From: a virus
Taxonomy: Duplodnaviria; Caudoviricetes
Length of the DNA: 63,674 bases
Reading direction: 5' to 3' (one strand)
Virus record (IMG/VR): IMGVR_UViG_3300048839_000884
Coordinates: 1 to 63,674 of that record
A model generated the notes under the pieces. It searched no databases. It had not been told where the DNA came from and worked only from the letters and a program-made list of their open reading frames with translations. The position numbers were made by a program, and so were the translations under genes. This document shows, piece after piece, positions 274 through 30,176 of this stretch; positions within the stretch are counted from its first letter, which is position 1; the number at the start of each line of letters is the position of its first letter.

Positions 274-2790
274 ATGACGCGCTGGTACATCAAGGGCGGG
301 GATAGCGCCGTCATCGCGTCGGGGTCGGCGGATTTCGACTTCGTTCCCGCATCGACGATCCGACCGGGCGATACCTTCATCGCCCGCGTCGCCACGCGCG
401 ACAACGTCACGCCGGCCCCGGTCACCAGCGGCGACTGGACGTCGATCACCTCGTCCCCGGACGCATCGAACAGCACGTCCGGGTCCGACGCGGCGCTGTC
501 CAAGGACTTCGTCTGGTACACGACCTTCACCGACGCGAAAGACCTGACGTGGTCGCGCGGCGGCACGGCGGTCCAGTTGCGCGGCGCCTTCGCCGTGGCG
601 CCGGCCATGGGCTACGAGATCGAACTGGTCGCGTCGTCCAGCGGGACGAACGCCTCCGGCTCGACGGCGAGCGTCCTCACCAGCCTGACTACGGCCGAAG
701 ACGACGAACTGATCGTCTGCTTCGGGTCGAGCGGCCGGAACACGTCGTGGACGAACTGGGACGCAGCGACTGACCCATCCGTCGCGTCGGGTTCCGGCGG
801 CTCCAGCCAGATCGGCCTGTTTTCGCCGACGTCTACGTGGCAGCGGCACCAGTCCAACGGCTCGACGTCCGGCTCGGACATCTCCGGATCCATCGGTGTC
901 GCGGTCAAGGATACCGCCGGCTCGACCGGCAACATTCAGGTCACCACCGGCGTCGGTGTCCGCCTCGCGTGGGTCACGACGCGCTGGCGGCAGGTGCAGG
1001 CGACCACCCTCAAGGTGGTGAACAACGGCGGCGGCGGCGTCTACCCCGGCACGGGCGACACCAACGCGGCGGCGCTGCCGTTCACGCCGACGAGCGGAAA
1101 TACCCTGTTCGCCTTCGTCGCCATCGACAAGGACGCGACCAGCGACGTCACGGCGACAGGCTGGACGCGGGAGATGCAGGAGCGCAGCGGCTCGGCCGTC
1201 AGCGCCGCCCTGTTCCGCAAGGTCTCCGACGGCACCGAGACGGAGATCGAGGTCACCTACACCTCGTCGGCTTCGCAGGGCTTCTCGTTGTTCGTGGTCG
1301 AGATCGAGGGCGAGGTCGAGATCGACGTCTCGGCGACGTCGACGACGAACCTCTCGACGCCGGCCAAGACGTCCGGCACCGCGACGACGGCCAATACCAC
1401 GGCGGCCGGCGGCCTCGCCATCGGCCTCTGGGCGAACGACAGCTACGGGTCGTGCGACACCGGTACTCTTGAGACGTGGTCTGACGGCTTCATCGCCAAC
1501 CCCGGCCCGAAGACCCGGCAGTATTTCGGCCCCGCCGACGTCGGCTCGCCGGCCATCGCGGTCGGGTGGAAGGAGATCCCGAGCAGCGGTACGGCCGTCT
1601 CGACGTCCTACACCTACACGGGCGACACCGACGACGAGAACCTTCTGTTCCTCGTCGTGCTCAAGGAAAGCGCGAGCGGCGTCACCGGCGACGCGGCGAT
1701 CACGCTCGGGAACGTCACCACGGCGGCGGACGGCACGCCGGAGATCATCGGCGACGCGGCCATCACGCTCGGGAACGTCACCACGGCGGCGGACGGCTGG
1801 CAACCGGCTCTCGGCGACGCGGCGATCACGCTCGGGCTCGTCACCACGGCGGCGGACGGCACACCGGAGATCATCGGCGACGCGGCGCCGACGCTTGGGC
1901 TGGTCACCACCTCCGCCGACGGGGCGCCGGAGGTCATCGGCGATTCGGCTGTCACTCTCGGGCTGGTGACCACGGCAGCGGACGGCACGCCGGAGGTGAC
2001 GGGCGATCTGGCCAAGACGCTGGGGCTGGTGACCACGGCAGCGGACGGCACGCCGGAGATCGTCGGCGACGCGGCCATCACCCTTGGGCTGGTGACCACG
2101 GCGACCGACGGCGCGCCTGAGATCATCGGCGACGCGGCCATCACGCTCCAGCTTATGACGCTGGAGACGCAGACGCTCTCCGAGGTCTCCGGCGACGCGG
2201 CCATCACGATGCCGCTCCTGACCACGGAGGCCGACGGCACGCCGGAGATCATCGGCGACGCGGCGCCGACGCTTGGGCTTGTCACACTCTCGGCCGACGG
2301 CGAGGCGAGCGCCGGCACCATCGAGGGCGACGCGGCGATCACGCTCGGGCTCGTCACCACGGACACCTACGGCTACCCCGGTGACGCGCCGCGGGTCGGG
2401 GGAGGTGGCGGCGGCCGGCCATCGAAGAAGAAGCGCCGCAAGCGGCCCAAGTACGAGCACGAGATCGAGGAGGAGGCCGAGGAGGAGGCCGAGTCCGCAA
2501 AAACGACAGAACCCGAAATCCGGCCGGAAATAGTACCCTCCTCCGAGGTCGACTTCCCGGCCGCGGCGGCGGGCCTGCCGGCACCGGATCTCGATCTCGA
2601 CCAGCGCCAGCCGGCGCCGCCGATCACGGTCGACCGGTCGAACCGCGGGCCGCTCCGGGTTCGGCGCGAGAACGAACAGGTTCGCGCGTTCATCTCGCAG
2701 GTTCGCGCCAAGGCGGCCGAGGAGCGGGCGCGGCGCGAGTACGAAGCCGCGCTCGACGACGACGACGACGCGCTCCTCCTCCTCCTGTGA
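274..2790 (+). CDS. Putative head/tail fibre or decoration protein with 21-aa repeats (838 aa)
   Basis: Thr/Ser/Gly-rich beta domains, 11 GDAAITLGLVTTAADGTPEII repeats, charged C-terminus ending DDDDDALLLLL; structural gene neighbourhood. Confidence 0.7.
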   Translation: MTRWYIKGGDSAVIASGSADFDFVPASTIRPGDTFIARVATRDNVTPAPVTSGDWTSITSSPDASNSTSGSDAALSKDFVWYTTFTDAKDLTWSRGGTAVQLRGAFAVAPAMGYEIELVASSSGTNASGSTASVLTSLTTAEDDELIVCFGSSGRNTSWTNWDAATDPSVASGSGGSSQIGLFSPTSTWQRHQSNGSTSGSDISGSIGVAVKDTAGSTGNIQVTTGVGVRLAWVTTRWRQVQATTLKVVNNGGGGVYPGTGDTNAAALPFTPTSGNTLFAFVAIDKDATSDVTATGWTREMQERSGSAVSAALFRKVSDGTETEIEVTYTSSASQGFSLFVVEIEGEVEIDVSATSTTNLSTPAKTSGTATTANTTAAGGLAIGLWANDSYGSCDTGTLETWSDGFIANPGPKTRQYFGPADVGSPAIAVGWKEIPSSGTAVSTSYTYTGDTDDENLLFLVVLKESASGVTGDAAITLGNVTTAADGTPEIIGDAAITLGNVTTAADGWQPALGDAAITLGLVTTAADGTPEIIGDAAPTLGLVTTSADGAPEVIGDSAVTLGLVTTAADGTPEVTGDLAKTLGLVTTAADGTPEIVGDAAITLGLVTTATDGAPEIIGDAAITLQLMTLETQTLSEVSGDAAITMPLLTTEADGTPEIIGDAAPTLGLVTLSADGEASAGTIEGDAAITLGLVTTDTYGYPGDAPRVGGGGGGRPSKKKRRKRPKYEHEIEEEAEEEAESAKTTEPEIRPEIVPSSEVDFPAAAAGLPAPDLDLDQRQPAPPITVDRSNRGPLRVRRENEQVRAFISQVRAKAAEERARREYEAALDDDDDALLLLL
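1687..2379 (+). repeat. Intragenic tandem repeat, ~11 x 63 bp (21 aa)
   Basis: Recurrent ggcgacgcggc(g/c)atcacgctcggg...accacggcggcggacggcacgccggagatcatc. Confidence 0.9.
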
Positions 2791-3255: not shown

Positions 3256-3656
3256 GCGAACGATTCTTCGACCGCGTCGCGCACCTCGCCGTGGATGGCT
3301 TCACTGCCGGCCAGACGCTCGACATCGCCACCATGCTCGGCGACCAACTCAACCCGCGGCGCGACGGCGCGCCGAAGACCGCGCTTCTCGTCGTCCGGGG
3401 CACGCTGCACCTCGAAGCCGTGGACGCGCTCCAGAAGCTCGTCGCCATCGCCCCGACCGATGCCGCCGGCATATCCGCCTTGCAGGCGCAGGTGAAAGCG
3501 TACATGGCAGTAGAGGACACGATCCGCCGGATCGTGGGAGCCGGCGCCGAGATATGGGCCGAGATGGATCGGGAGGACCGCGAAGTCCTCGCCGAGCACA
3601 TGGGCCTCGACATCGACGATGAGGCGGAACTGAGCAGGGGCTTCGACAATGATTGA
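3252..3656 (+). CDS. Hypothetical protein (head module)
   Basis: MSERFFDRVAH...; ATGA-coupled start; overlaps scaffold start. Confidence 0.7.
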   Translation: MSERFFDRVAHLAVDGFTAGQTLDIATMLGDQLNPRRDGAPKTALLVVRGTLHLEAVDALQKLVAIAPTDAAGISALQAQVKAYMAVEDTIRRIVGAGAEIWAEMDREDREVLAEHMGLDIDDEAELSRGFDND

Positions 3657-16838: not shown

Positions 16839-19800
16839 ATGGCCGACGACGTGTTCCGGCGGCGCCTCGAAGAACTCATGCTGAGGGACTTCGGGGTGGC
16901 CAACGTAGGGGCGGTTCCCCTGCCGGGCTTCGAGGACCGACTGCCAGACATCCCGGCGGAGGACCCCCCTCCGAGGCCGCGCCCGCGACCGACCGATCCC
17001 GCGACCGAGATCCCGAGCCTCGACGAACTGATCGGCGACCGCACCACCGCGCCGCGGCCGAAGTCGAAGCCGTCCTCGCCCATGGACGGTATCCCCACAC
17101 TCGAAGAGATGACCGGCGCCCGCGTCCCGACCGGGTACGTCGATTCCGCGCTGAACGCGCTTGGCCGCGGGTGGAATCAGGCGCAGCAGGGCATCGCGGT
17201 CATCGGCGAGTCGACCGGCCTCCTGACGCCGGCGGAGGCCGCGCGCGATCTCGTCCAGAACCAGCGCGACCTTGAGCAGTACCCCACGTCCGCCGACGAG
17301 GATCAGGCGTGGAAGGATTGGGAGAACGCCAAGGGCTTTTGGGAGTCCGCGGGCGTCGCCCTGAGCAACCCCTTCGACATCGCCGCGCAGACGATGATCT
17401 CGTCGCTCCCGCACTCGATCCCGTCGGTGGCCGGCGGCCTCGCCGGCGCGGCGGGCGGGACGATGGCTGGCGGCCCGGTCGGCGGCACGGCCGGCCTCGT
17501 TGGCGGCATGTTCGCCGGTGGCATCGCGCCCGAGTATGCGGCCTCGCTTCTCGACGTCATGCGCGAGGAAGGCGTCGACACCAACGACGAACTGTCGATC
17601 CAGAAGGCGTTCGAGGATCCGCTCCTCATGGCGCGCGCCAAGGCCGAGGCCCTGCGCCGGGGCGTCGCCGTCTCCGCCTTCGACGCGGCGACGGCTCTTG
17701 TCGGCGGCAAGCTCGTCCCGGCGGCGGTCAAGCGCGGCATCTCGAAGCCTCTTACGACGCTCCTCGCCGGCGGCATCGAAATGGCCGGCGGCGCGGCCGG
17801 CGAGGCGGCTGGCCAGCTTGCGGCCAAGGGCGAGATCACCGACGCCGGCGACATCGGCCTCGAAGCCATCGCCGAAGGGCCGGGCATCGTCACCGACACC
17901 GGCGTCGCCGCGGCCACGGAGGCCATCAACCGCGGCGTCCAGCCGTCCGCTCCAGCCCCGGCGCCCGCCCCGGCGCCGACGACAGCCGCGCCCACGGCGC
18001 CTCCGGCGCCGACGACAGCCGGCCCGACGCAGATGGTCATCTCCGATCCGGGCGGCCCGCGCGACGGGCAGGTCGTCACGGTCGACCCGAACCAGCCGCA
18101 GGACCAGCCGACCCTTATCGTCACGGACGATCAGGGCCGGCAGTTCCGCGTCGGCAAGCGCGTTCTCACCGAATCCGGTGCTGCCCCGCCGATGGCGGCA
18201 CCGGTAGGGGCAGGGTCGCAGGCAGCGGGCGGACCTCCTCCGACGCCCCAAGCCTCCCCTGCCCCGTCCTCCCCCTCCGCGATCACGCCGGAGCAGCGCG
18301 CGCTCCTGCGGAATATGGGCTACCCGGACGACGACATCGACGTCATGGATCCGGAGCAGGCCCGCTACGAGGCCGAGGCGGCATTGGAGGACGGCGTCAC
18401 GGCGACGCCCGACGACATCGAGCGCGCGCGTGTCTACCAGCCGCCGGCGGCTGAACCGATCATCATGGGGGACGAGGAAGATGAGCGAGGCGTACCGCTC
18501 GACCAGCGAGGCGACCCGGTCGTCGGGACCACTGAGGATGCACCGGGCGTACCTTCTGGAGACGGCAATACCGGACCCGGTGGCCGTGGCGGTGCTGGCG
18601 TCGGGGACGTACCAGTACGGCCCGATGCGCCGGTTGGTGGAGTCCCCGACGCCGAAGGACTGGATCCTCAATCTGGTGCTCGACCCGCGCAACAGGATAC
18701 CGCAGGACGAGTTCCTGTCGGCTCTCCTGTAGTCGAGCCCGGCCGCACCGGACCGGAGGAGTCGCCCGAGGACGACGTCACGGTCGACGACATCAACGAC
18801 CTCGACATGGACCCCGACGCCATGCGGCGCCGGCTGGAGAAGGCCGGCGTAGACCCGGACCGCGCCGTCCTCATCGCGACCGGCGCACAGACGGACGAAG
18901 CCGGCAACGACATCATGCTCGACTCCGCGGAGGAGCGGCGGCTCTACGAGGTGATCGTCGACGAGATCCGGGAGCGCCGGGCGGCTGCGCGTCAGGCGGC
19001 CGTCGACGCGCCCATGCCGCCGGCGACCGTTCCCGAAGGCACCGGCACCCGCAAGCGGCCGGCCAAGGTCACCACCGAGGACGATCTCGCGCCGGCGCGC
19101 GAAGTCGTCGCCGAGCCGACGGATGCGCAGGCGCAGGCCGGCAACTACCAGAAGGGACACGTCCGCATCGCGGGCATGGACGTCTCCATCGAGACGCCGA
19201 AGGGTGGCACGCGGCGCTCGAAGGATCCGGCGAACCCGTGGGAGGCGGTCTCCCCGGCGGACTACGGCTACTTCAAGAACACGACGGGGAAGGATGGCGA
19301 CCATCTCGACGTCTTCATCGGCCCGAAGCCAGACAACGGGCAGGCGTTCGTCATCGACCAATACGACCCGGCGACCGGGCGCTTCGACGAGCACAAGGTC
19401 GTGCTCGGCGTCGACTCGGCCGAGGAAGCCCAAGCCCTCTACGATGCCGCGTTCAGCGACGGCAGCGGCCCGACGCGCCGCGGCGGCATCAAGGCCATGT
19501 CGACGGACGACCTGCGCGGTCGCCTCGCCGTCCGCAAGTCCCTCGGGCGCCGCCCGCTGGGCGGCCCGCGTCCACAGGCGCCGGCCCCGGCACCCGCGCC
19601 GGCCGCGCCGCCGGCCGCCCCGACGAACCCGGCACAGGTGGAAGGGGCGGGAAGGCCGAACGTGTGGGCACGCGGGAGCGAGTTGCAGGGCCGTGACCTT
19701 GACACGGTGCTCGCGACCCTCGCGGATGAGGGCTATTCAGACGACGAGATCGCCACCCGCGGCGTCGCCGGGTGGCTCGGCGAGGACGACCCGTCCCCCG

Positions 19801-22800
19801 ATCCAGTCGACATCCCCATGCCGCCTATCGCGGACATGGCCCGCGCGAAAATCTACGACGGCAAAAGCGACGAGCGTGTTCTTCGGGAACTGCGTGACGA
19901 CGGCTACCCCGAGGAGCAGATCGTCAGCGAGGCGATCCCCGCGATAGAGAAGGTCCGCCGCGAACTTGCGGACGAAGCCGAGCGCAACAAGGCGCGCGCC
20001 GACGAGAAGAAGGCAAAGGCAGCGGAGGCCGCGACCGCGGCCGAGAGCCCGCAACTGACGAACCGCCAGAAGGCGGAGGCCGGCAGGGTGTGGGACAGCC
20101 TTTCCCCCGGCGAACGGCTGCGTCAGATCGCCGATGCCGGGATCTATGCAGACGACCAGAGCAGCCGGAACGCCTCGCAGAGTTCATGGGATGAACTGGC
20201 GCCCGGAATCCGCGAGAACGTCGCTCGCGAACTCCTCATCCCGAAGCCGCCGCGTCCGACCCCGACGCAGGATCCCAAGGACTTCGCCCTCGACTACGTC
20301 CGGGACAAGGGGACGATGGTCGGCTTGGGGACGGCGATGATCGACGCCGGCTACGAGCCAGACGTTGTCGAGGACGCCGCGCGTGCCGCACAGGAGAGTA
20401 TGAACGCCCCGGCCAAGCCCGACGCAGCGGATGACGAGGAGACGATTCCGGAGGGCGTATGGGAGGAGGCGCGGGACGCGCTGGTCGGCGCCCTCATCGA
20501 GCGCATCGACGGCGAGGGTATGACCATCGTCGAGGCGCGCAAGATCGCCCGCGAGGTCGACCCGAGCCTGACGAACAAGCAGGTCGAGGAATTGGTCGAG
20601 GCCGCGATGGTCGACATCGGCCGCTCGACAGCGAGGGGCGCGCAGAACCGCGGCCGTGCGCCACTCGACGTCTTCCGCTCCTTCGTCCGCCTCTACAGCG
20701 TCCAGCCGCGTCTGGATCAGCGCACGTCGACGTCGATGGAGCAGCAGGCGTATTCGACGCCGCTCCCACTCGCCTACCTCGCGGCGAACCTCGCTGAGAT
20801 CGGCCCGAAGGATACCGTCTACGAGCCGACCGCGGGCAACGGGATGCTCCTCATCACGGCGAGCCCGTCGAACATCATCGCCAACGAACTGAACCCCGAC
20901 CGGTTCGCTTCGCTGGAGCGTTCACTGCCGTCGGCCAATCTCCATCAGGGCGACGCGATGGCCTACGCTCCGAGCGAGAAGGTCGACGCCGTCATCACGA
21001 ACCCGCCGTTCGGCAAGGTGAAGCGCGACGATCAGACGTCGGTGCGCTGGAATATCGACGGCCGGTTCACGCCACTGGTCGACCATGCGATTGCGTGGCG
21101 TGCCCTCAAGTCGATGCGGAAAGGCGGGCGCGCGGTCCTCATCATCGGTGGACAGCGTGGAACCACCGACGAGCGCCGCAACGGATACAGGAATGACGAC
21201 GTCCGGGCCTTCTTCAAGAAGCTCTACGACGCCTACAATGTGGTCGACCACTTCACGGTCGACGGAAAGCTCTACGAGCGGCAGGGGGCGAGTTGGCCGG
21301 TCGACGTGATCGTGATCGACGGGCAGGGGGCAAGCAAATTCTCCTACCCGATGGCCGAGCCGCCCCCCATTTATTCGTCGTGGGATGCTCTGGAGGAGAA
21401 GTTCGATGATCGCGTGGCAACCCCCCGGAAGCCAGAGGAACGCGGGAGCGGTGCTGATACCGGACCCGCCGGCGCGGCTGACGCCGGACCAGTATCGAGC
21501 CCTGTTGGCCGACCGGATCGACCGGCTGGTCAGGAAGGTGGAGGACAAGAAGGAGGCGTACCGGCTTCTGGAGGAGCGGCTGGTGGGCGAGGGGCTGACG
21601 CTGAACCAGCGGCTCGCGGTGGCAGGGATGCTGATGGCGGAGCACAGCAACGCCCTGATCGGAGCGGCGGGGTCGCCGACGGCGCCGGTGCCGCGGCGGG
21701 AACTGGAGCACGATCCGGCTCTCGCGAAGGCGCTGGAGGAGGAGACGCTGGAGGAGTTTCTGGACGCGGTCTACCAGTAGACCCGGAGGTCGAGGCCGCC
21801 TTCGACGAGGCCATGGCCGAAGTGTTCGGCGAGCCGGCCGCGGAGCCTGACGAGGCGTCCGAGGCCGCCGAGGCGTTGGACGAGGTCGCGAAGGCGCTGT
21901 CCGCCGCCGCCAAGCGGATTGGCGGCAAGAAGAAGAAGGCTTCAACGGCACCGGCCGCGGAGCCGGCGCCGGAGCCGACTGTCGGCGAAGCCGCGGCGTC
22001 GGCGGTGTCGAACGCCGCCACCGGTCTCGACGAGGTCGCGAGCGGCTTGTTCCAGCTATTCGGCGGCCCGAAGGTGTCGTCCGGGTTCTCCTTCGATGAG
22101 GAGACGTGGGCGAAGGCAAAGCCGTTGTTCCTCTCCGGCCTGTCGCACATGCGCGCGGCCGGGCGCGACGTCGTCGACATGATGAAGGCGCTTCTGCGCT
22201 ACCTCCAAGAGAAGGCGAACTTCACCGCGGACATGGTCCGCGCGATGCGGCCCTACATCACCCGCGTCATCACCGAGGTGAAGGCGGGCGTTCTGGCGAT
22301 CCCGCAGGCACAGGTCGACCCGGCATCGCAGAAGAAGGCGACGAAGGAGAAGGTCCGCCGGGAGAACCTTGAGCGCGAGACGACCTATCAGGTCGCCTAT
22401 GAGCCGACGTCGGCCGCGCGCTTCGCCGTCGGCACCCTTGTGCCGAACAACATGCAGACGGCGATCAAGGACTCGCTGGCAAAGCTCTCCGAGCGGGTCG
22501 GGGACATCGACGAGTATGTGGCCGGGAAACTCGGCTACACGCTGGACGAACTTCTCGGGACGGATTCCAAGCCGGGCTACTTCTCGGCGGAGCAGGTCGA
22601 CGCTCTCGCGCTCGCCATCTCCAACGTCGAGGATGGCGGCGGGTTCATCATCGGCGACCAGACCGGCGTCGGGAAGGGCCGGTTCGTCGCTGCGATGATC
22701 CGCTACGCCATGCGGGCCGGGAAGATCCCGGTGTTCTTCACCAAGCAGCCGGGGCTCTACGGCGACATGGTGCGCGATCTGCGCGACATCGGCATGGCCG

Positions 22801-25800
22801 GGATCGAGAAACGGATCTTCCTCACGAACAAGGATCTGACCGGGTCGAAGACGATCCCTCTGTCCGAAGATCCGACGGACGTCCTGCGGTCGCCGACGGC
22901 GGCGCAGATGACGCGCGCTCTGGCGCAGATGCAGAACGGCGGGACGCTAGGGCCGGAGTTCGACGTCGTCTTCACGACCTACGCGCAGGTGAATTTCGGC
23001 GGGAAGGGGAAGCCATACGACCGCCATCACGCGCTCCGCGGGATCGCGCCGTCGGCGATGTTCATCCTCGATGAATCGCACCTCGCCGGAGGCAGCGATG
23101 CGAAGCCGCAGGTCGACAAGGCGACGGGGAACCCGATCCCGCGGCGGCAGGATTTCGTGCGTGAACTTCTCGGCGCCTCGCAGGGTGCGGTCTACTCCTC
23201 CGCGACCTACGCCAAGAACCCCTATGTCATGAGCCTCTACTTCAAGACGGCGCTCGGTCAGGCAATGCCGAACCCCGAGCGGCTGTCCGAAGTCATCAAG
23301 GCCGGCGGTGTCCCGCTCCAGCAGGTCGTGGCGAACATGCTGGTCGAGGGCGGCCAATACGTCCGCCGCGAGCGTTCTTTCGACGGCGTCGAAATGAACA
23401 TGGAGCAGCTTCCGACCGACGTCGCGAAGGCCGACAGGGCCGCGGAGACGCTGGGGGAGGTGTTCGGTCTCGACCGGGATTTCATGGAAGGCGTGCGCCA
23501 AGCCTACATCGAGGAGATGGCCTCGGAAGGCATGTCGGCCATGGGAGACGAGGCGGTCGGGGAAAACTCCGCGTCGTCCGTCGGCTTCGCGAACGTGATG
23601 CACAACGTCGTCGCGCAGATGCTCCTCGCCCTCAAGGCCCCTGCCGTCGCGGATCGGGCTATCGCGCTGCACAAGGCGGGCGAGAAGCCGATCATCGCGC
23701 TTGCGAACACCAACGAGTCGATCATCAACGACTTCATCGAGGACCAGAAGCTCAAGGAAGGTGACGAGGCGCCGATCACGTTCAACCGCATCCTCGACAG
23801 GTACGTCAACAGGCTTCGCCGGATCGGACTCAAGGACGAGAACGACAAGCGCACGTACTACTACCTGACCGACGACGACATCGAGCGGCTGGGCGGAGAG
23901 GCGGCTCTGGAGGCGTTCAAGGAGGTCGAGCGCAAGGTCAAGGAGGCGGACCTTTCCGGCCTGCCGGCGTCCCCTATCGACTACGTCATGGACCGGCTGG
24001 AACAGGCCGGGATTCAGGTCGACGAGATCACCGGGCGCCAGAACACCCTCCGCGGTGGCGTGGTGACGAAGCGCGTCAGCACAGACCGGTCGAAGAAGTT
24101 GGTCATGAACGCCTTCAACGCCGGCCGGGTGAACGCGCTCATCATCAACAAGTCGGGCTCGACCGGGTTCTCCCTTCACGCCACCGCGGCGAAGAACAAC
24201 GACGGCAAGCAGCGGCACATGCTCCTGCTCCAGCCGGACCCGAACATCGACGACTTCATGCAGATGCTCGGCCGCATCCACCGGACCGGCCAGATCAAGC
24301 TGCCGAAGTATACCCTCGCCATCTCGGATCTTGCGGTCGAGAAGCGCGTCGCCGCCGTCCTCATGAAGAAGATGGCGAGCCTGAACGCCAACACGACGGG
24401 CGGGAAGAAGTCCGCGGTATCTCTCGAAGCCGTCGACTTCATGAACGAGTACGGCGACGACGTGGTCACGGATTTCCTGCGCGACAACCCTGACATCGCG
24501 CAGCGGATTGCCGTTTACCCCCCGAGCGGGGAGGAGAAGACGTCGAGCGATAGCAGCATCGCGGCTCGGTTCACCGGCCGCCTTGCCATACTGCCGTCCG
24601 CAGAAGTCCAGCGGATCTACGACGAGATCGAGAAGACCTACGTCGACTACGTCAAGTCGCTGGAGAACATGGGCATCAACACCCTTGAGGCCCGGACGAT
24701 CCCGCTCGACGCCGAGACGAAGTCGACCATGGAGATGGTCCCGGCGCGCGACGGCGACGGGCCGTTCGACGCCGCGGCCAACGTCGAGACGGTGTCCGTG
24801 GCCCGGCTCGGGTCGCCGTACAAGAGCGATGAGGTCAGGAAGCAGCTTGAGGACGCGCTGGCCGGCCGCACGCCGAGGCAGGTGATCGAGGAGGCGATCT
24901 CGTCCCTGCGGGACAAGATGCCCGGCTACCTGTCGCAGATCGACGAGGCTATCGCCCGCAAGGAAGAGGAACGCGACTCGACGGAGAGTGAAGCGCGGCA
25001 GGGTCGCGCCAACGTGGCCATCGACCACCTCCAGAAGAAGCGCGCTGAGGCCGAGGCTGCGCTGGAGTCGGTCATCGACATGCTCCGCACCATGGCGCCC
25101 GGCAATACCGGGAACCTTGGGGTGAACATCGGCGAGGTCAGCGCCAACCTCCCGGCGGTCATTCTCGACATCGACACCCGAAGGGTCAGGGCCAACCCGA
25201 CCGCCAAGTCGGCGATCATCATCCGGGTAGCCATCGGCGACGCGAGCCGAGAGCTTCGCGCGCCGCTGTCGAAGTTCCGGCCCGCGGTTCTTGCCGCCAA
25301 CTCCGACGTCGCGGAAGACCTGCCGACGGGCTACTTCTTCATCCCGAACGGCGGGAACATCGCCGGGTCTCCGCCCAAGGTCGTCGCGACCATCGGCGAA
25401 AACGAGACCCCCGTCTACGTCGGGGACAGGATCAGGGTCGACAGCTACTCGACCGGACAGTTCGAGGGAACCATCACGGAGGCCGCGCCCTATGGGCAGG
25501 TCCGTGTCCAGAACTACCGGGAACCGGTGTCGTCTTGGCAGATCGCGGAGGTCACCAAGGAGGGGCCGAGGGAATGGGGACCGGCGGACGAGGCGTCCCT
25601 GAGTTTTTGGGACAACAACGTCGATCAGGACGACACGCAGACCCGCGAGGAGCGGCAGATCATCACCGGCAACCTCCTCGCCGGGTTCGAGACGTTCCGC
25701 CGCGGGCAGTTCATTTTCTACACGACGTCGGCCGGCGAGGTTCGGCAGGGCATCCTGATGCCGCGGAACTTCGACGCGCAGCGGGAACTGGACAGTCAAG

Positions 25801-28800
25801 CGTTCCGGTTCTCCTCGGCGGAGACCGCCGCGCAGTTCCTGTTCGACGGCCCGCGCGCGATGCGGATGATCCTGTCGGAAGACGGGCTCTTCTCGGCGTC
25901 CATGAACGACGCCGGCGGATTCGCGATGAATGTCCGCGTTCAGGGTGGGCGCCCGTGGATGCTCCTCCGGCCGGCGCGCGATGCCTTCGCCGGCGACTTC
26001 GAGCAGCGTCGCGGCCAGCCGCTTGCGAAGCTCACGGTGATGAGCCGCGAGCGGTTCGTCCGGGGCCTCAAGGCATACGAGGAAAACCTCGGCGCGGTCT
26101 TCATCACCAACGCCAACCGGGCCGAGGCGCGCGCGGTGGAAGACGCTGCCGCCAGCCGCGGCCAGAACGAATCCGCGTCGATCAGGGGCCGCGCCTCGGC
26201 GCGCGCCGCCGTCCCGAAGCCCGCCGTCGCGCTCTCCGATGAGCAGCGCGAGATAGTCAACATGGTGTCGAGCATCGTCGGGTTCGCCGCCCCGGTCGGG
26301 TTCGAGAGCGAGATCCGCGTTCGCGGCTTCGGCGCGCAGCAATGGGGCGTAGACGAAACGAGCGCGGACGGGTCGTTCAACTGGACGACGAACGTCATCA
26401 AAATCGCGATGGACGGCCCGGATCGGCGGCGGGCGGCGCGCCACGAGATCGGGCACGCGCTCCAGACGCTCTACACGGATCAGGAGCGCGCCGTCCTCAA
26501 GGCCGAGATCGACCGCCTCCGCGAGTTCGTCCGCTCGCACCCGGAAGGGCACCCGGACATCGCAACCGCCTCACCGGCGGAGGTCGAGGCCGAGGCGTTC
26601 GCCCTGTATTGGGCCGACCGGCAGGCACAGCGGCCGACCGGGTCCGGGATCCACATCGTCATCCGGCGGGCGTGGGAGCGGATCATCGCGACCTTCGGGC
26701 GCGTCAGGAACGCCTTGCAGGGCCGCGGCTACCAGACAGCCGAGGACGTGTTCAAGCGCGCGCTGGCCGGCGGGATGCGCCGGCGCGACCGCAATCCGAT
26801 GTCGGCGGCGCAGCGGCGCTACCTGTTCGGAACGGGAGAGCCGGAGGCGAGCCCCGCTGCCCCGCAGCCGGGGTCTGGGACGACGCAGGTCGCCACGACA
26901 GCAGGCTCATACCGCAAGGCCGCGGCCATCATTGCGGGAATGGGTGGGCGCCGCGTCCTAGACTACGGCGCCGGGCTTGGTCTCGGCAGCGATGCTATGT
27001 CCGAGCGCGGGCTCGATGTCTCGTCCTTCGAGCCGAACCCGCAACGGTGGTCCGGCAAGACCCCGGTCACCTTCACCGACTCTGACCAGATCACCGGCCA
27101 GTACGACGGTGTCGTCAGCCTCAACGTCCTGAACGTTCTGGAGCCCGAACTCCGCGACGAGGTCACCGCTGACATCCTCGCGCGCGTCGCGCCGGGCGGG
27201 TCCGCCTTGATCGGAGCGCGCCGATGGGAGGGGGACGTCGGCGCCACCAAGAACGCCGAGGTGACCGGCGAGCCAGATGCGATATGGGTCAACAAGAGCG
27301 GCGTGCGCGTCTACCAGAAGGGGTTCTCCGGGAACGAACTGGTCGACTACGTGACGAGGATGGCCGGCGAAGGCTGGACCGTGCGCCGGGTGAACGGGAT
27401 CGGCGCTGTTGGGGTCATCGCGACCCGGAGCGCAGATATGGTCTCCGCGGTGCGCCGGCTTCGCCCCGGACAGCAGATCAACACCCCGGTCGCCCCGACG
27501 CCGCAGCAGACGTTGGCGCAGGCGCAGGCGGTCTTGCAGCGCACCCGGCGCCATTTCAGCGGGCTGTCCAGAATGGATAAGCTTCGCGTCAAGGTGCAGG
27601 ACCGGTTCCTCGCCGTCCGCCGCGATCAGGAGCGCATGGTCGCGTCCGGGTTCCAGATGCGGGCCGCCAACGACACCTACGAGGCGGAGGAAAGGTTCCC
27701 CGGCAAGGCCGGAGAGCGCATCGCGCTTCTGGAGGAACGGGCTCTCCAGCCGTTCGTCAGGCATCTTCGGGAGTCCGGGATCAGCATCGAGGAACTGGAC
27801 GACTACCTGATCGCCCGGCACGCGGAGGAGCGGACGGACCGGATCGCGCAGATCACCAACGGGCAGAACATGGAAGGCGCCGGCGTCGATCTCCAGTCGG
27901 CGAATGACGTGCTGGCGGATGTGGCCGCCGACGCGCGCCATCAGGATTTTCTCCGGGCGGCGGCGATGATCGACAAGGTGATCCGGGATACCCGCGACCG
28001 CCAGTTCCAGTCCGGCCTGATCTCCCGCGAGGAGTACGACTCGTTGCGGACCATGTACCAGCACTATGTCCCGCTCCGTGGGTGGGAAGCCGACCCCGAG
28101 CTTGCGGAAGACCAGCCGCTCGGCACCGGCCGCGGCTTCGACATTCGCGGGAAGGAGAACAAAGCGGCGTTCGGGCGCACGACGAAGTCGGACTCCCCGA
28201 CCGCCTACGTCTTCATGGCGGCGCAGCAGTCGATCATCCGGTCGGAGAAGAACCGCGTTCTCCGCACGTTCCTCCGGTACGTCGACGAGGTGAACGACCC
28301 GACCCGGTTCGAGCGGGTCAAGGGCCAGTACCGGAAGCGGATCAACCCGCGGACCGGGTTCGTCGAGGTCTACTTCGTCCCGGCGCAGGCGATGGACGAC
28401 CGGGACATGGTCTCCATAAAGCAGGGCGGCCGGGAGATCCGCGTCAGGGTCCACGACCGGGACATCCTCCGCGCGCTCCAGCAGTTCGGCTCGGTGGAGG
28501 TGAACGGGTTCCTGCGCGGGCTGATGCGCGTGGCGCGCATCTACGCCCAACTCCAGACGCAGTGGAACCCGAGCTTCATCGTCCCGAACTTCTTCCGTGA
28601 CGTCGAGACGGCGCTCATCAACATCTCGGACGTCGAGAACCTGCCGCCCGGCACCCGCCGGCGCCTGACTGGAAAGCTCGGCAAGAGCATATGGGGGATC
28701 ATGAAGGCGCTCCGGGAGTCCCGGAAGACGGGGCGCCCGCCGACCGGGGCCGTAGGCCAGTTCTACGAGGAGTTCCGCCTCGCCGGCGGCAAGGTCTCGT

Positions 28801-30176
28801 TCGGGATGGTCGACCCGGTCGAGCGGATCAAGGATCGCATCGACGACGCGCTCGACACCTCGAAGTGGGGAGGCGTCAAGCGCGCCGCGCGCGATAACCC
28901 TGTCTTCCGACTCATCACGGACGCGAACGAGGCGGTCGAGAACGGCGTGCGCCTCGCCGCCTACATCGCGCTCCGGGAAGCCGCGGTGCCGCAGACCAAG
29001 GCGGCATCCATCGTCCGGAACCTGACGACGAACTTCAACCGCCGCGGCGAGTACGGGCCGGCGATCAACGCCCTCTACATCTTCTTCAATGCCTCGCTCC
29101 AAGGCACGACGAGGATGCTCCACTCGATCCGCCGGTCGAGGACGACGCAGGCCATCGTCGTGTCTCTCGTCGGCGCCGGCTTCGCCATGGACGCCTTCAA
29201 CATCCTCGTCTCTGAACTGTTCGGCGACGACGACGAGGAGAAGCGCGCCTACGACGAGATTCCGGACTACGTGAAGGAGCGGAACTTCGTCCTGATGATT
29301 CCGGGGACGAAGGAGTATCTGAAGCTCCCTCTGGCCTTCGGCTACTCGTGGTTCTACAACACCGGCCGCCTCGTTTCGGCGACGATGCGCGGGGCTGTAG
29401 AGCCGGGCGAGGCGGCCAAGCAGACCGTTCTCTCCGCGCTCGATGCCTTCAACCCCATGGGCACCGCGCCGAGTATTGGGCAGTACATCACGCCGACGCT
29501 CGCCGACCCTGCGGTCCAGATCGGCGAGAACCTGAACTTCTTCGGCTCGCCGATCCGGCCGGAGAACTTCGACCGCTCGGTGCCGGCGTCGCAGACGGCC
29601 TACGATAGCGTCGGCGCGCCGTGGCGCGTGATTGCCGAAGGACTGAACAGCATCACCGGCGGCACGGCCGGGCGGCCGGGCGCCATCGACGTGAGCCCGG
29701 AGGACATCGAGCACATCGTCGAGTTCGCGACCGGCGGCGCGGGGCGGTTCATCGCCAACACGATCAAGGCTGGCGGGGCCTTGCTGGGCGCCACGGACAC
29801 CGAATGGCTTCCGGAAAAGACCCCGATCCTCAACTCCTTCTACGGCTCCGGCGGCACGGTGCAGGCGCAGCGCGACGCCTTCTACCGGGCATGGCGCGAA
29901 GTCGATCAGGCGGACCACGAGGTCAAGGAGTTGAAGAAGCGCGGCGACATCGAAATGATGCGCCAGCGCCAGCGCGAGTACCGCACCGAGATCGCCGCCT
30001 ACCCGCACTTCTCGAAGGTCTACAAGGAGCTTGGCGAGATCCGGCGGGAGAAGTCCCGCATCCGCGACAAGCTCTCCGGAGCCGAGCGGCGCACCGCGCT
30101 GGAGCGGCTGGAGGAGCGGGAGAAGCGGCTCATCAGCGGCGTCATGCGCCGGCTTGAGGTCGAGGAGGCGAACTGA
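16839..30176 (+). CDS. Giant DarB-like polyvalent virion protein (4445 aa): inorganic-pyrophosphatase-like, N6-adenine MTase, strawberry-notch-type SF2 helicase, metallopeptidase, second SAM-MTase and LPD38-like domains
   Basis: GNYQKGH..DGDHLDVF..FDEHKV (~19140-19450); EPTAGNG/NPPF (~20820-21010); GDQTGVGKGR, DESH, QMLGRIHRTGQ (~22650-24300); HEIGH..EAEAF (~26440-26600); LDYGAGLG..NVLNV (~26960-27140); NFNRRGE..FFNASLQG (~29030-29105). Confidence 0.85.
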   Translation: MADDVFRRRLEELMLRDFGVANVGAVPLPGFEDRLPDIPAEDPPPRPRPRPTDPATEIPSLDELIGDRTTAPRPKSKPSSPMDGIPTLEEMTGARVPTGYVDSALNALGRGWNQAQQGIAVIGESTGLLTPAEAARDLVQNQRDLEQYPTSADEDQAWKDWENAKGFWESAGVALSNPFDIAAQTMISSLPHSIPSVAGGLAGAAGGTMAGGPVGGTAGLVGGMFAGGIAPEYAASLLDVMREEGVDTNDELSIQKAFEDPLLMARAKAEALRRGVAVSAFDAATALVGGKLVPAAVKRGISKPLTTLLAGGIEMAGGAAGEAAGQLAAKGEITDAGDIGLEAIAEGPGIVTDTGVAAATEAINRGVQPSAPAPAPAPAPTTAAPTAPPAPTTAGPTQMVISDPGGPRDGQVVTVDPNQPQDQPTLIVTDDQGRQFRVGKRVLTESGAAPPMAAPVGAGSQAAGGPPPTPQASPAPSSPSAITPEQRALLRNMGYPDDDIDVMDPEQARYEAEAALEDGVTATPDDIERARVYQPPAAEPIIMGDEEDERGVPLDQRGDPVVGTTEDAPGVPSGDGNTGPGGRGGAGVGDVPVRPDAPVGGVPDAEGLDPQSGARPAQQDTAGRVPVGSPVVEPGRTGPEESPEDDVTVDDINDLDMDPDAMRRRLEKAGVDPDRAVLIATGAQTDEAGNDIMLDSAEERRLYEVIVDEIRERRAAARQAAVDAPMPPATVPEGTGTRKRPAKVTTEDDLAPAREVVAEPTDAQAQAGNYQKGHVRIAGMDVSIETPKGGTRRSKDPANPWEAVSPADYGYFKNTTGKDGDHLDVFIGPKPDNGQAFVIDQYDPATGRFDEHKVVLGVDSAEEAQALYDAAFSDGSGPTRRGGIKAMSTDDLRGRLAVRKSLGRRPLGGPRPQAPAPAPAPAAPPAAPTNPAQVEGAGRPNVWARGSELQGRDLDTVLATLADEGYSDDEIATRGVAGWLGEDDPSPDPVDIPMPPIADMARAKIYDGKSDERVLRELRDDGYPEEQIVSEAIPAIEKVRRELADEAERNKARADEKKAKAAEAATAAESPQLTNRQKAEAGRVWDSLSPGERLRQIADAGIYADDQSSRNASQSSWDELAPGIRENVARELLIPKPPRPTPTQDPKDFALDYVRDKGTMVGLGTAMIDAGYEPDVVEDAARAAQESMNAPAKPDAADDEETIPEGVWEEARDALVGALIERIDGEGMTIVEARKIAREVDPSLTNKQVEELVEAAMVDIGRSTARGAQNRGRAPLDVFRSFVRLYSVQPRLDQRTSTSMEQQAYSTPLPLAYLAANLAEIGPKDTVYEPTAGNGMLLITASPSNIIANELNPDRFASLERSLPSANLHQGDAMAYAPSEKVDAVITNPPFGKVKRDDQTSVRWNIDGRFTPLVDHAIAWRALKSMRKGGRAVLIIGGQRGTTDERRNGYRNDDVRAFFKKLYDAYNVVDHFTVDGKLYERQGASWPVDVIVIDGQGASKFSYPMAEPPPIYSSWDALEEKFDDRVATPRKPEERGSGADTGPAGAADAGPVSSPVGRPDRPAGQEGGGQEGGVPASGGAAGGRGADAEPAARGGRDADGGAQQRPDRSGGVADGAGAAAGTGARSGSREGAGGGDAGGVSGRGLPVDPEVEAAFDEAMAEVFGEPAAEPDEASEAAEALDEVAKALSAAAKRIGGKKKKASTAPAAEPAPEPTVGEAAASAVSNAATGLDEVASGLFQLFGGPKVSSGFSFDEETWAKAKPLFLSGLSHMRAAGRDVVDMMKALLRYLQEKANFTADMVRAMRPYITRVITEVKAGVLAIPQAQVDPASQKKATKEKVRRENLERETTYQVAYEPTSAARFAVGTLVPNNMQTAIKDSLAKLSERVGDIDEYVAGKLGYTLDELLGTDSKPGYFSAEQVDALALAISNVEDGGGFIIGDQTGVGKGRFVAAMIRYAMRAGKIPVFFTKQPGLYGDMVRDLRDIGMAGIEKRIFLTNKDLTGSKTIPLSEDPTDVLRSPTAAQMTRALAQMQNGGTLGPEFDVVFTTYAQVNFGGKGKPYDRHHALRGIAPSAMFILDESHLAGGSDAKPQVDKATGNPIPRRQDFVRELLGASQGAVYSSATYAKNPYVMSLYFKTALGQAMPNPERLSEVIKAGGVPLQQVVANMLVEGGQYVRRERSFDGVEMNMEQLPTDVAKADRAAETLGEVFGLDRDFMEGVRQAYIEEMASEGMSAMGDEAVGENSASSVGFANVMHNVVAQMLLALKAPAVADRAIALHKAGEKPIIALANTNESIINDFIEDQKLKEGDEAPITFNRILDRYVNRLRRIGLKDENDKRTYYYLTDDDIERLGGEAALEAFKEVERKVKEADLSGLPASPIDYVMDRLEQAGIQVDEITGRQNTLRGGVVTKRVSTDRSKKLVMNAFNAGRVNALIINKSGSTGFSLHATAAKNNDGKQRHMLLLQPDPNIDDFMQMLGRIHRTGQIKLPKYTLAISDLAVEKRVAAVLMKKMASLNANTTGGKKSAVSLEAVDFMNEYGDDVVTDFLRDNPDIAQRIAVYPPSGEEKTSSDSSIAARFTGRLAILPSAEVQRIYDEIEKTYVDYVKSLENMGINTLEARTIPLDAETKSTMEMVPARDGDGPFDAAANVETVSVARLGSPYKSDEVRKQLEDALAGRTPRQVIEEAISSLRDKMPGYLSQIDEAIARKEEERDSTESEARQGRANVAIDHLQKKRAEAEAALESVIDMLRTMAPGNTGNLGVNIGEVSANLPAVILDIDTRRVRANPTAKSAIIIRVAIGDASRELRAPLSKFRPAVLAANSDVAEDLPTGYFFIPNGGNIAGSPPKVVATIGENETPVYVGDRIRVDSYSTGQFEGTITEAAPYGQVRVQNYREPVSSWQIAEVTKEGPREWGPADEASLSFWDNNVDQDDTQTREERQIITGNLLAGFETFRRGQFIFYTTSAGEVRQGILMPRNFDAQRELDSQAFRFSSAETAAQFLFDGPRAMRMILSEDGLFSASMNDAGGFAMNVRVQGGRPWMLLRPARDAFAGDFEQRRGQPLAKLTVMSRERFVRGLKAYEENLGAVFITNANRAEARAVEDAAASRGQNESASIRGRASARAAVPKPAVALSDEQREIVNMVSSIVGFAAPVGFESEIRVRGFGAQQWGVDETSADGSFNWTTNVIKIAMDGPDRRRAARHEIGHALQTLYTDQERAVLKAEIDRLREFVRSHPEGHPDIATASPAEVEAEAFALYWADRQAQRPTGSGIHIVIRRAWERIIATFGRVRNALQGRGYQTAEDVFKRALAGGMRRRDRNPMSAAQRRYLFGTGEPEASPAAPQPGSGTTQVATTAGSYRKAAAIIAGMGGRRVLDYGAGLGLGSDAMSERGLDVSSFEPNPQRWSGKTPVTFTDSDQITGQYDGVVSLNVLNVLEPELRDEVTADILARVAPGGSALIGARRWEGDVGATKNAEVTGEPDAIWVNKSGVRVYQKGFSGNELVDYVTRMAGEGWTVRRVNGIGAVGVIATRSADMVSAVRRLRPGQQINTPVAPTPQQTLAQAQAVLQRTRRHFSGLSRMDKLRVKVQDRFLAVRRDQERMVASGFQMRAANDTYEAEERFPGKAGERIALLEERALQPFVRHLRESGISIEELDDYLIARHAEERTDRIAQITNGQNMEGAGVDLQSANDVLADVAADARHQDFLRAAAMIDKVIRDTRDRQFQSGLISREEYDSLRTMYQHYVPLRGWEADPELAEDQPLGTGRGFDIRGKENKAAFGRTTKSDSPTAYVFMAAQQSIIRSEKNRVLRTFLRYVDEVNDPTRFERVKGQYRKRINPRTGFVEVYFVPAQAMDDRDMVSIKQGGREIRVRVHDRDILRALQQFGSVEVNGFLRGLMRVARIYAQLQTQWNPSFIVPNFFRDVETALINISDVENLPPGTRRRLTGKLGKSIWGIMKALRESRKTGRPPTGAVGQFYEEFRLAGGKVSFGMVDPVERIKDRIDDALDTSKWGGVKRAARDNPVFRLITDANEAVENGVRLAAYIALREAAVPQTKAASIVRNLTTNFNRRGEYGPAINALYIFFNASLQGTTRMLHSIRRSRTTQAIVVSLVGAGFAMDAFNILVSELFGDDDEEKRAYDEIPDYVKERNFVLMIPGTKEYLKLPLAFGYSWFYNTGRLVSATMRGAVEPGEAAKQTVLSALDAFNPMGTAPSIGQYITPTLADPAVQIGENLNFFGSPIRPENFDRSVPASQTAYDSVGAPWRVIAEGLNSITGGTAGRPGAIDVSPEDIEHIVEFATGGAGRFIANTIKAGGALLGATDTEWLPEKTPILNSFYGSGGTVQAQRDAFYRAWREVDQADHEVKELKKRGDIEMMRQRQREYRTEIAAYPHFSKVYKELGEIRREKSRIRDKLSGAERRTALERLEEREKRLISGVMRRLEVEEAN
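18481..18732 (+). CDS. Putative overprinted gene (+1 frame, 83 aa) inside the giant protein
   Basis: GGGGACGAGGAAG before ATG; globular-looking product; host frame becomes G/P/R low-complexity with A/T-ending codons. Confidence 0.5.
   Translation: MSEAYRSTSEATRSSGPLRMHRAYLLETAIPDPVAVAVLASGTYQYGPMRRLVESPTPKDWILNLVLDPRNRIPQDEFLSALL
21406..21780 (+). CDS. Putative overprinted gene (+1 frame, 124 aa) inside the giant protein
   Basis: GGAGGAG RBS; nearly all codons end in G/C in this frame; helical product; host frame is a G/A/R linker. Confidence 0.7.
   Translation: MIAWQPPGSQRNAGAVLIPDPPARLTPDQYRALLADRIDRLVRKVEDKKEAYRLLEERLVGEGLTLNQRLAVAGMLMAEHSNALIGAAGSPTAPVPRRELEHDPALAKALEEETLEEFLDAVYQ

Follow-up and report, generated by a model that had tools for sequence, protein, structure and literature searches.

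A gene that lies wholly inside of another, on the same strand and in a different frame, can be described as 'nested', and such a gene is very probably present in the virus sequence considered here (IMG/VR record IMGVR_UViG_3300048839_000884; Duplodnaviria, Caudoviricetes). The window, by which is meant the whole of the stretch of DNA that was analysed, is a complete virus record of 63,674 bp (CheckV completeness 100%). Positions 21406..21780 (+ strand) hold 124 codons plus a TAG in the +1 frame of a giant open reading frame (ORF) of 4445 amino acids (aa; 16839..30176, + strand). That shorter ORF would appear, on comparative grounds, to be a genuine protein-coding gene, and hence the DNA to be dual-coding, within the linker of a giant, virion-associated, DarB-like polyvalent protein. 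This degree of confidence applies to coding, that is, and not to function. The initial annotation, made from the letters of the window, had proposed a real nested gene, and that proposal is borne out by conservation as a family, by a conserved ATG along with a Shine-Dalgarno-like run, by frame-specific substitutions, and by a confidently predicted fold. Here 'host frame' is used for the frame of the giant ORF, 'nested frame' for the +1 frame, and 'third frame' for the other alternative.

Of the host protein's domains, the N6-adenine methyltransferase precedes the nested ORF and the Strawberry-notch-type helicase follows it; the ORF has its ATG at 21406 and its TAG at 21778-21780. Seven nucleotides (nt) 5' of that ATG is a Shine-Dalgarno-like run, GGAGGAG (21392..21398, + strand), so that run, ATG, TAG and 124-aa ORF all are present as initially described. 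A second, upstream in-frame ATG, at 21385..21387 (+ strand), would give instead a product of 131 aa. That codon is probably not the start, however, judging from homologues, which align from the Met of 21406, the start that had been chosen previously, rather than from 21385. In a contig from a related strain there is a T>C difference at 21386, this being a single contig, of depth <5, so possibly an error.

An open +1 ORF is, on its own, unremarkable in DNA of 69% G+C content (GC). This one nonetheless stands above chance because the third frame has seven stops across the nested span in the window, because the product has 75 database relatives, and because it is predicted to fold with a pLDDT (predicted local distance difference test score) of 96.1. 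Over the whole of the giant ORF, GC by codon position is 0.68/0.48/0.87 in the host frame. Within 21450-21749 that pattern is inverted (0.90-0.94/0.74-0.80/0.38-0.48), with the host frame back to 0.74/0.58/0.90 by 21825. The nested frame displays 0.77/0.44/0.90, i.e., the genome's normal coding pattern, and the G/C-ending codons that had been remarked upon in this frame thus are seen, once GC is taken frame by frame, as a third-position value of 0.90. The dual-coding stretch, 21420..21779 (+ strand), is read by the host frame as a hydrophobic-poor linker consisting of G/A/R/P/D-rich text ('GSGADTGPAGAADAGPVSSPVGRPDRPAGQEGGGQEGG...'), with ordinary sequence resuming at 'VDPEVEAAFDEAMAEVF', right at the nested TAG. 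Low-complexity host text with low third-position GC, recovering after the TAG, is also what had been described, and both translation and codon-position GC agree.

A phmmer search with the nested protein of 1.84 billion cluster representatives (E<=1e-3) returned those 75 relatives, 26 of them at E<=1e-10, the best being 50% identical. Sixty of the 75 are 92-146 aa long, and most of these relatives align from the Met of 21406 through to the C-terminus. Motifs common to the family alignment are AWTPP, LT..YR.ALA.RIDRLV, ENS.WL and ETLEEFL..LY. The relatives exceeding 400 aa are P0034 (931 aa) and P0051 (1744 aa), both of which are multi-stretch matches, and Pfam finds neither a methyltransferase nor a helicase domain in P0034; Pfam on ten longer family members returned nothing relevant. 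AlphaFold2, supplied with 41 sequences, models the nested product as a compact beta-hairpin followed by six helices (pLDDT 96.1; predicted template modelling score 0.88), consistent with the ordered, helical +1 protein that had been envisaged.

The product matches no named family or solved structure among the resources searched. Pfam thus returned no families, PHROGs at best a family of unknown function (E 0.006), NCBIfam 18.2 bits versus a cut-off of 42.2, PDB profiles at best E 0.4, PADLOC no match, and the protein Atlas no usable match. A hint of DNA binding, from TrpR-like (E 0.0025) and Fis-type helix-turn-helix (E 0.4) matches, was dropped as falling under any threshold. No confirmed relative resulted from scans of viral contigs with P0001, P0004, alignment A2, P0067 and P0010, and P0030 and P0050 had no tblastn match among plasmids. 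A 401-genome sample from one phylum gave zero matches as well, a result that carries no weight, as G001, a known carrier, also was missed.

Conservation of the arrangement was assessed using relatives gathered by way of the flanking methyltransferase and helicase rather than by way of the nested ORF: 2 genome loci, 59 metagenome loci, and 13 named plasmid or phage records, the last taken from the top of listings (272 plasmid and 3 phage records with matches) and not a random sample. The initial annotation had suggested tBLASTn as a check on conservation. Direct tblastn with the nested protein against phages and plasmids finds no match, while the +1 ORF is found in the relatives that were gathered via the flanking domains. 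A hidden Markov model (HMM) of the family matches 31 of 62 sources (61 loci plus the window), and in every one of the 31 the nested ORF has the same geometry, that is, wholly inside the larger ORF, on its strand, in the +1 frame, and beginning at the methyltransferase end. With three rounds of HMM searching, 46 of the 57 two-domain loci are family members, in the same place and always +1. Stops in the +1 frame of homologues had been named as grounds for rejecting the gene; a +1 ORF of 88-185 aa from an ATG is found instead in 53 of the 57, one which opens close to, or at, the end of the methyltransferase and stops ahead of the helicase domain. ORFs in the +2 frame at that same place are 54 aa or shorter in all loci but L036 (99 aa). 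Across the dozens of carrier loci the flanking domains are 40-55% identical and the overlap is ~370-450 nt in length.

The nested ORF has, at the level of sequence, its own start signals. An ATG is found a few codons 5' of the conserved AW.P motif in 31 of 31 loci, and a GGAG, GAGG or AGGA core is located at -17..-5 in 16 of 25 non-redundant loci versus 122 of 1376 (8.9%) other same-frame ATGs (binomial p 1.4e-11). The set of 25 leaves out near-duplicates (L008, L009, L011, L024, L021 and L017). As read by the host frame, these same bases encode a conserved tail, L-(K/E)-E-K-(L/F)-(D/N), which in the window is the end of the methyltransferase, 'ALEEKFDD', i.e., the bases that hold both the Shine-Dalgarno run and the ATG of the nested gene.

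Named carriers are Chroococcidiopsis pB, Thalassospira, Acaryochloris, Gloeobacter pGMOR1 and Picosynechococcus PCC 7002 pAQ6, with Bacteroides phage BS-TP4 a weak case (E 0.07). Seven distant plasmid loci serve as a negative control, having no family match, no Shine-Dalgarno-plus-ATG at the methyltransferase tail, and no +1 ORF longer than 69 aa. Four of these (L065-L068) are from Vogesella, Yersinia, Pseudomonas and Xanthomonas, and the other three (L074-L076) are from Serratia, Persicobacter and Cupriavidus. Six of the seven have a fused ORF with an ordinary linker. In the remaining one, Persicobacter psychrovividus pPP10 (L075 1276-4916), methyltransferase and helicase each have a gene of their own, side by side in different frames and overlapping by 4 nt. 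There is no nested ORF, and the arrangement may represent the unfused state of the pair.

Across the nested ORF, no stop interrupts the host frame in any of 44 non-redundant loci, i.e., 44 of 44 are open versus 9.3 expected given synonymous shuffles of the nested frame, pointing to a host frame that is functional across the overlap. The third frame is open in none of the 44, its stop counts being close to expectation. A 25-locus subset gives the same outcome for host and third frames alike. (Left out of the 44 are L008, L009, L010, L011, L024, L041, L047, L048 and L060 along with distant plasmid loci L065-L068.) The robust part of this test is the contrast between the two alternative frames. 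The hydrophobic fraction of the host frame is under the shuffle mean in 39 of the 44 (mean z -1.25), and the arrangement occurs as well in loci of 46-57% GC, where the third frame has 10-20 stops.

Substitutions also can be apportioned by frame, a check which had been called for and which was run on one pair of loci. L046 and L049, 88% identical, differ across the nested region at 10/4/24 sites by nested-frame codon position. Counted as synonymous versus nonsynonymous codons, these differences come to 21:13 for the nested frame but 3:30 for the host frame, i.e., a synonymous excess that is seen in the nested frame only. In the flanks the phase is reversed, with differences by host-frame codon position of 17/2/88 for the methyltransferase and 11/8/123 for the helicase. 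Pairs involving L006, L010 and L060 were dropped, having too few differences and flanks that are out of register. Together with conservation of the family, the 21:13 versus 3:30 contrast points to purifying selection on the embedded frame. The nested protein evolves quickly, with a mean identity of 24% versus 47% for the flanks, but its distances track those of the two host domains (Mantel Spearman 0.34 and 0.32, p<=5e-4). As judged by sequence comparison, selection maintains both readings across dozens of diverged loci, from phages, plasmids and metagenomes, with the nested frame the more constrained of the two and the host frame there serving as a disordered linker.

A number of points weigh against this interpretation. 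Translation of the nested ORF is judged from sequence comparison along with a predicted fold. Its database relatives are gene-caller predictions, each known from its protein sequence. Nine of the 25 loci have no clear Shine-Dalgarno core at the chosen ATG. Eleven of the 57 two-domain loci are not family by HMM, with seven having other helical +1 ORFs (88-185 aa) and four having none, and HMM iteration may bring drift. Because the loci share ancestry, probability products (1.6e-30, 10^-51) overstate significance, and the substitution test consists of a single informative pair, L046/L049, which does not include the window's own gene. What is guessed below as to function is drawn from linkage and two domain fusions, with no match from Pfam, PHROGs, NCBIfam, PADLOC or PDB sequences. 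Two database relatives, P0010 and P0065, can moreover be read as supporting programmed ribosomal frameshifting, as considered next.

With frameshifting, the domain would be reached by ribosomes already translating the giant ORF, rather than by internal initiation: a +1 shift at the methyltransferase tail would yield a truncated methyltransferase-domain fusion, while a -1 shift at the nested stop would yield a domain-helicase fusion. In prfB a Shine-Dalgarno-like run stimulates a +1 frameshift, and the run found here could in principle do likewise. P0010 (249 aa) continues straight from the domain into residues like those of the window's host frame beyond the TAG, and in P0065 the domain is preceded, in frame, by a polyvalent-type segment, so other arrangements do exist. 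No in-frame stop marks the putative +1 site, however, and the 7-nt spacing from Shine-Dalgarno run to ATG suits initiation. The ATG precedes the conserved motif in all 31 loci, most of the 60 short relatives begin at that Met, and an X_XXY_YYZ heptamer is found in the nested frame in just 13 of 44 loci, in no conserved place. Frameshifting thus is improbable. Comparably improbable, indeed slightly harder to credit, is a selfish insertion such as ShiLan, despite the similar outline, in that a phage methylase gene there likewise holds an insertion which is read through in frame, as a loop or linker, while a separate start opens an ORF in another frame (PMC11855218). Distant fused relatives do have ordinary linkers without the ORF, as might be expected of an insertion. 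Yet no HNH or other nuclease family is detected by Pfam, PHROGs, NCBIfam or PADLOC, and the ORF is at the same site in 46-53 of 57 divergent loci rather than occurring as sporadic, near-identical copies. The 24% mean identity is, furthermore, in step with the host domains, and divergence that is both deep and host-correlated therefore speaks for long vertical co-inheritance, not recent homing.

It might be supposed instead that the domain truly is in frame within the giant protein, with the window displaying either errors of assembly or a pair of indels that compensate for each other. Where the coding signal switches frame there is indeed a run of six C (21421-21426), and that switch takes place over a short stretch. 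The +1 arrangement, with ATG and stop of its own, nevertheless recurs in 46 of 57 independent loci and is never in frame, and none of the 75 phmmer relatives has the domain in frame within a methyltransferase-helicase giant (P0051 being judged from its phmmer match). Contigs from public runs in addition match 21557-21800 and 21532-21682 without a difference, one of these runs possibly being the source sample, and so this explanation is highly improbable. (A related strain in public runs is gap-free over 21530-21912, with 11 differences.) As to there being no gene at all, but instead a chance open frame in G+C-rich DNA, long ORFs are indeed plentiful in this window of 65-75% GC, with 92 that are >=200 aa over the six frames. 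Against mere chance are family conservation, the fold, the frame-specific substitutions, the open host frame, and persistence of the arrangement in those 46-57% GC loci with 10-20 third-frame stops, all of which leave chance with hardly any probability.

A translated, nested gene therefore continues to be preferred, though how it came to be nested may differ from what was first thought. The initial annotation described the small gene as 'overprinted'. That there is an overlap holds, but the direction possibly is the reverse, with the host linker more likely the secondary reading, because the nested frame has normal codon usage and because the family domain occurs, in some database relatives, fused to other, unrelated N-terminal regions. 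The likeliest history is one of a host frame overprinted on a pre-existing gene rather than of de novo birth of the small gene. That is, the linker frame may have been laid over an already existing small gene when the flanking genes became a single ORF.

Ribosomes presumably would initiate internally on the mRNA of the giant gene, giving rise to a separate small protein of perhaps ~14 kDa, while the host frame is kept free of stops such that methyltransferase and helicase stay fused through a disordered, low-complexity linker. The small protein would then be made whenever the polyvalent protein is made, and would be inherited with the methyltransferase-helicase 'dyad', from which it would be genetically inseparable. 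A scan of 20400-22400 for promoters found none, and none was expected. In metatranscriptome run X6 there is a 168-nt contig that covers part of the methyltransferase region (window 21156-21321), its three differences being variants seen also in DNA run X2. A related strain may thus be transcribed in the wetland sample, though DNA carry-over is possible and the contig stops short of the nested gene.

As to what the product does, a tentative leading guess is that it is a trans-acting accessory factor, i.e., a partner, regulator or assembly factor, of the methyltransferase-translocase module. This guess leads because of three things. One is the strict linkage of the nested ORF to the dyad. Another is that P0067 and P0078, whose C-terminal halves are of the nested-gene family, carry an N-terminal domain with free-standing homologues (pairwise E 1e-11 and 1e-12) that are encoded, in each of two type I restriction-modification operons, between hsdS and hsdR. 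The third is that P0065 fuses the family domain to a segment similar to a giant, phage-like polyvalent protein. That the product is instead an independent anti-defence effector is a second guess, and an unlikely one. The initial annotation had thought of a chaperone, inhibitor or packaging partner. A prediction of the complex of methyltransferase core, helicase N-lobe and nested protein scored 0.00, was without controls, and is given no weight either way.

The in-between ORFs of those operons are L078 5971-6423 (Paracoccus yeei pYEE5) and L077 5980-6384 (Croceicoccus marinus pCME4A9II), neither of which has a Pfam family, and the family HMM finds no member in the two operons. The N-terminal part of P0065 matches the main frame of L079 9001-9285, from Brucella pseudintermedia plasmid pOps-OCH-23_4. 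The latter is a 59-kb 'plasmid' having a tail-fibre gene and then a 4953-aa 'PLxRFG domain-containing protein' with an InPase region in common with the giant protein of the window; in the 18 kb examined it has neither the methyltransferase-helicase dyad nor the nested ORF.

Combining these perspectives, it is conceivable, though rather doubtful, that the dyad is in a large clade actually a triad. Its third, separately translated subunit would be encoded in the +1 frame of the linker, in elements ranging from phages to cyanobacterial plasmids, and would bind or regulate the methyltransferase-translocase much as type I accessory ORFs may, with the disordered linker itself derived from a two-gene fusion across an older gene.

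The nested ORF tends to be absent from annotation, as had been foreseen. Five of the six named records that carry the +1 ORF do not list it, including Picosynechococcus PCC 7002 pAQ6, though the gene tables of PLSDB are not complete. Gloeobacter morelensis pGMOR1 (L072 1183-5136) is the one that differs: RefSeq lists its +1 ORF, 2198..2647, as a hypothetical protein (WP_230844304.1). There the host frame is open throughout, the helicase coding sequence begins at 2644, and the methyltransferase part is absent from the table. A fused ORF has apparently been divided in annotation, and it is because of that split of the giant ORF that the +1 ORF came to be listed.

The host protein itself is recognizable. 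Pfam finds LPD38 (3.5e-41), InPase (2.7e-39), AAA_34 (1.1e-17) and Helicase_C_4 (3e-22) in the 4445 aa, with N6_Mtase at 17.9 bits, which is under the cut-off of 20.4. The methyltransferase core, EcoKI/TaqI-like and with an NPPFG motif (20700..21419, + strand; delimited from translation and tblastn), is 36-55% identical to 38 relatives, in all of which NPPF is invariant. The Strawberry-notch-type SWI2/SNF2 helicase (22377..24485, + strand; AAA_34 22584-23420, Helicase_C_4 24012-24485) has an N-lobe with 38-58% identity to 33 relatives, and shares the methyltransferase's frame in every source examined. An NPP(Y/F) adenine methyltransferase is found, that is, fused N-terminal to a SWI2/SNF2-type ATPase, and further conflict-related features occupy the same polypeptide: InPase, LPD38, a weak Methyltransf_23 and a HEIGH motif, all within a phage structural-gene context. 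Given NPPF methyltransferase, Strawberry-notch-type helicase, InPase and LPD38, the host protein therefore is a phage polyvalent protein with a DarB-like methyltransferase-helicase dyad, of the sort described in the main text of Iyer et al. (2017; PMC5512222).

The giant ORF lies in a virion-structural block, its neighbours encoding a major head protein, tail fibre, virion structural protein and lysozyme-like protein. The second methyltransferase domain is weak (Methyltransf_23, E 4.8e-4, under cut-off; window 26900-27100, host residues ~3360-3460), and upstream of it is an HExxH zincin-like motif (HEIGHALQ). Such a combination of weak second methyltransferase domain and HExxH motif is typical of self-processing polyvalent proteins. 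A 968-aa ORF at 30176-33082, with a lysozyme-like N-terminus according to PHROGs, begins on the final base of the giant ORF's stop codon, a junction suggesting that two proteins, both putatively ejected or internal to the virion, are translationally coupled.

The linker of the window is longer than most, 969 nt versus ~390-450 nt in the majority of relatives, where the helicase follows almost immediately upon the nested stop. Linkers of 795-1680 nt, likewise long, occur in L004, L018, L028, L029, L039, L042, L050 and L055. The extra host-frame segment (21781..22376, + strand), which extends from the nested stop to the conserved start of the helicase and is found in long-linker relatives only, consists of ~200 aa with acidic repeats, a K-rich patch and a helical domain ('FSFDEETWAKAKPLF...'). 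Elsewhere in the giant ORF, 18369-18848 also is inverted in its codon-position GC (0.87/0.57/0.60), with low-complexity G/P/D/V text in the host frame and a +1-frame ORF of 100 aa with a GTG start (18430..18732); tblastn against the collected loci finds no significant relative of either frame.

The host protein belongs to the best-known class of anti-restriction proteins of phages and plasmids, and anti-restriction machinery consequently may have an unrecognised component. The locus represents as well a clean natural system for the study of frame sharing, in which one frame encodes a folded product and all that is left of the other is a disordered linker without stops. A number of carriers are cultured and tractable (Picosynechococcus PCC 7002 pAQ6, Chroococcidiopsis, Acaryochloris, possibly Bacteroides phage BS-TP4), and the nested start codon can be altered silently with regard to the host frame. 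To our knowledge, long same-strand overlaps with both frames demonstrably kept are rare outside of tiny viral genomes, and annotation pipelines forbid them.

How does the arrangement compare with known systems? Rz1 within Rz, the spanin genes of phage lambda, and E within D of phiX174 are complete genes, each having a start of its own, that are embedded in the +1 frame of a gene on the same strand. In the case of Rz/Rz1, both products are made and work as one complex. The nested ORF described here shares that layout. Its host, however, is a 4445-aa multi-domain protein, with the overlap located in a linker between domains that is itself unstructured. The small protein differs too, being a 124-aa globular protein of cytoplasmic type, known here from its sequence, rather than a lipoprotein, and phages and plasmids from several phyla have kept the arrangement. 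With comS, which is out of frame within srfA (the surfactin synthetase of Bacillus subtilis) and co-transcribed with it, a small gene similarly is hidden inside of the gene for a giant multi-domain enzyme. But comS is 46 aa, is species-restricted, and regulates an unrelated pathway, whereas the present ORF is 88-185 aa, folds confidently in prediction, and tracks the methyltransferase-helicase dyad over distant lineages.

ShiLan, according to PMC11855218, is a hidden, out-of-frame HNH endonuclease, with its own start, within a stop-free insertion of actinophage DNA methylase genes. The resemblance is that of a phage methylase gene reading through a stretch whose other frame encodes a separate protein with its own start. 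The nested product differs in having no detected nuclease domain, a fixed position, deep divergence in step with its host, and no signs of homing. The DarB-type dyad of polyvalent proteins is described in the main text of Iyer et al. (PMC5512222) as two fused domains, and the protein of the window is similar in fusing an NPPF adenine methyltransferase to a Strawberry-notch-type ATPase along with InPase and LPD38. That main text contains zero occurrences of 'overlap' or 'frameshift' and nothing on a gene in the linker, and a search of the literature turned up no account of one between the methyltransferase and helicase of such a dyad. Embedded, out-of-frame genes as such are already known, from Rz1/Rz, comS/srfA and ShiLan; what appears to be new is the presence of one within the linker of the dyad.

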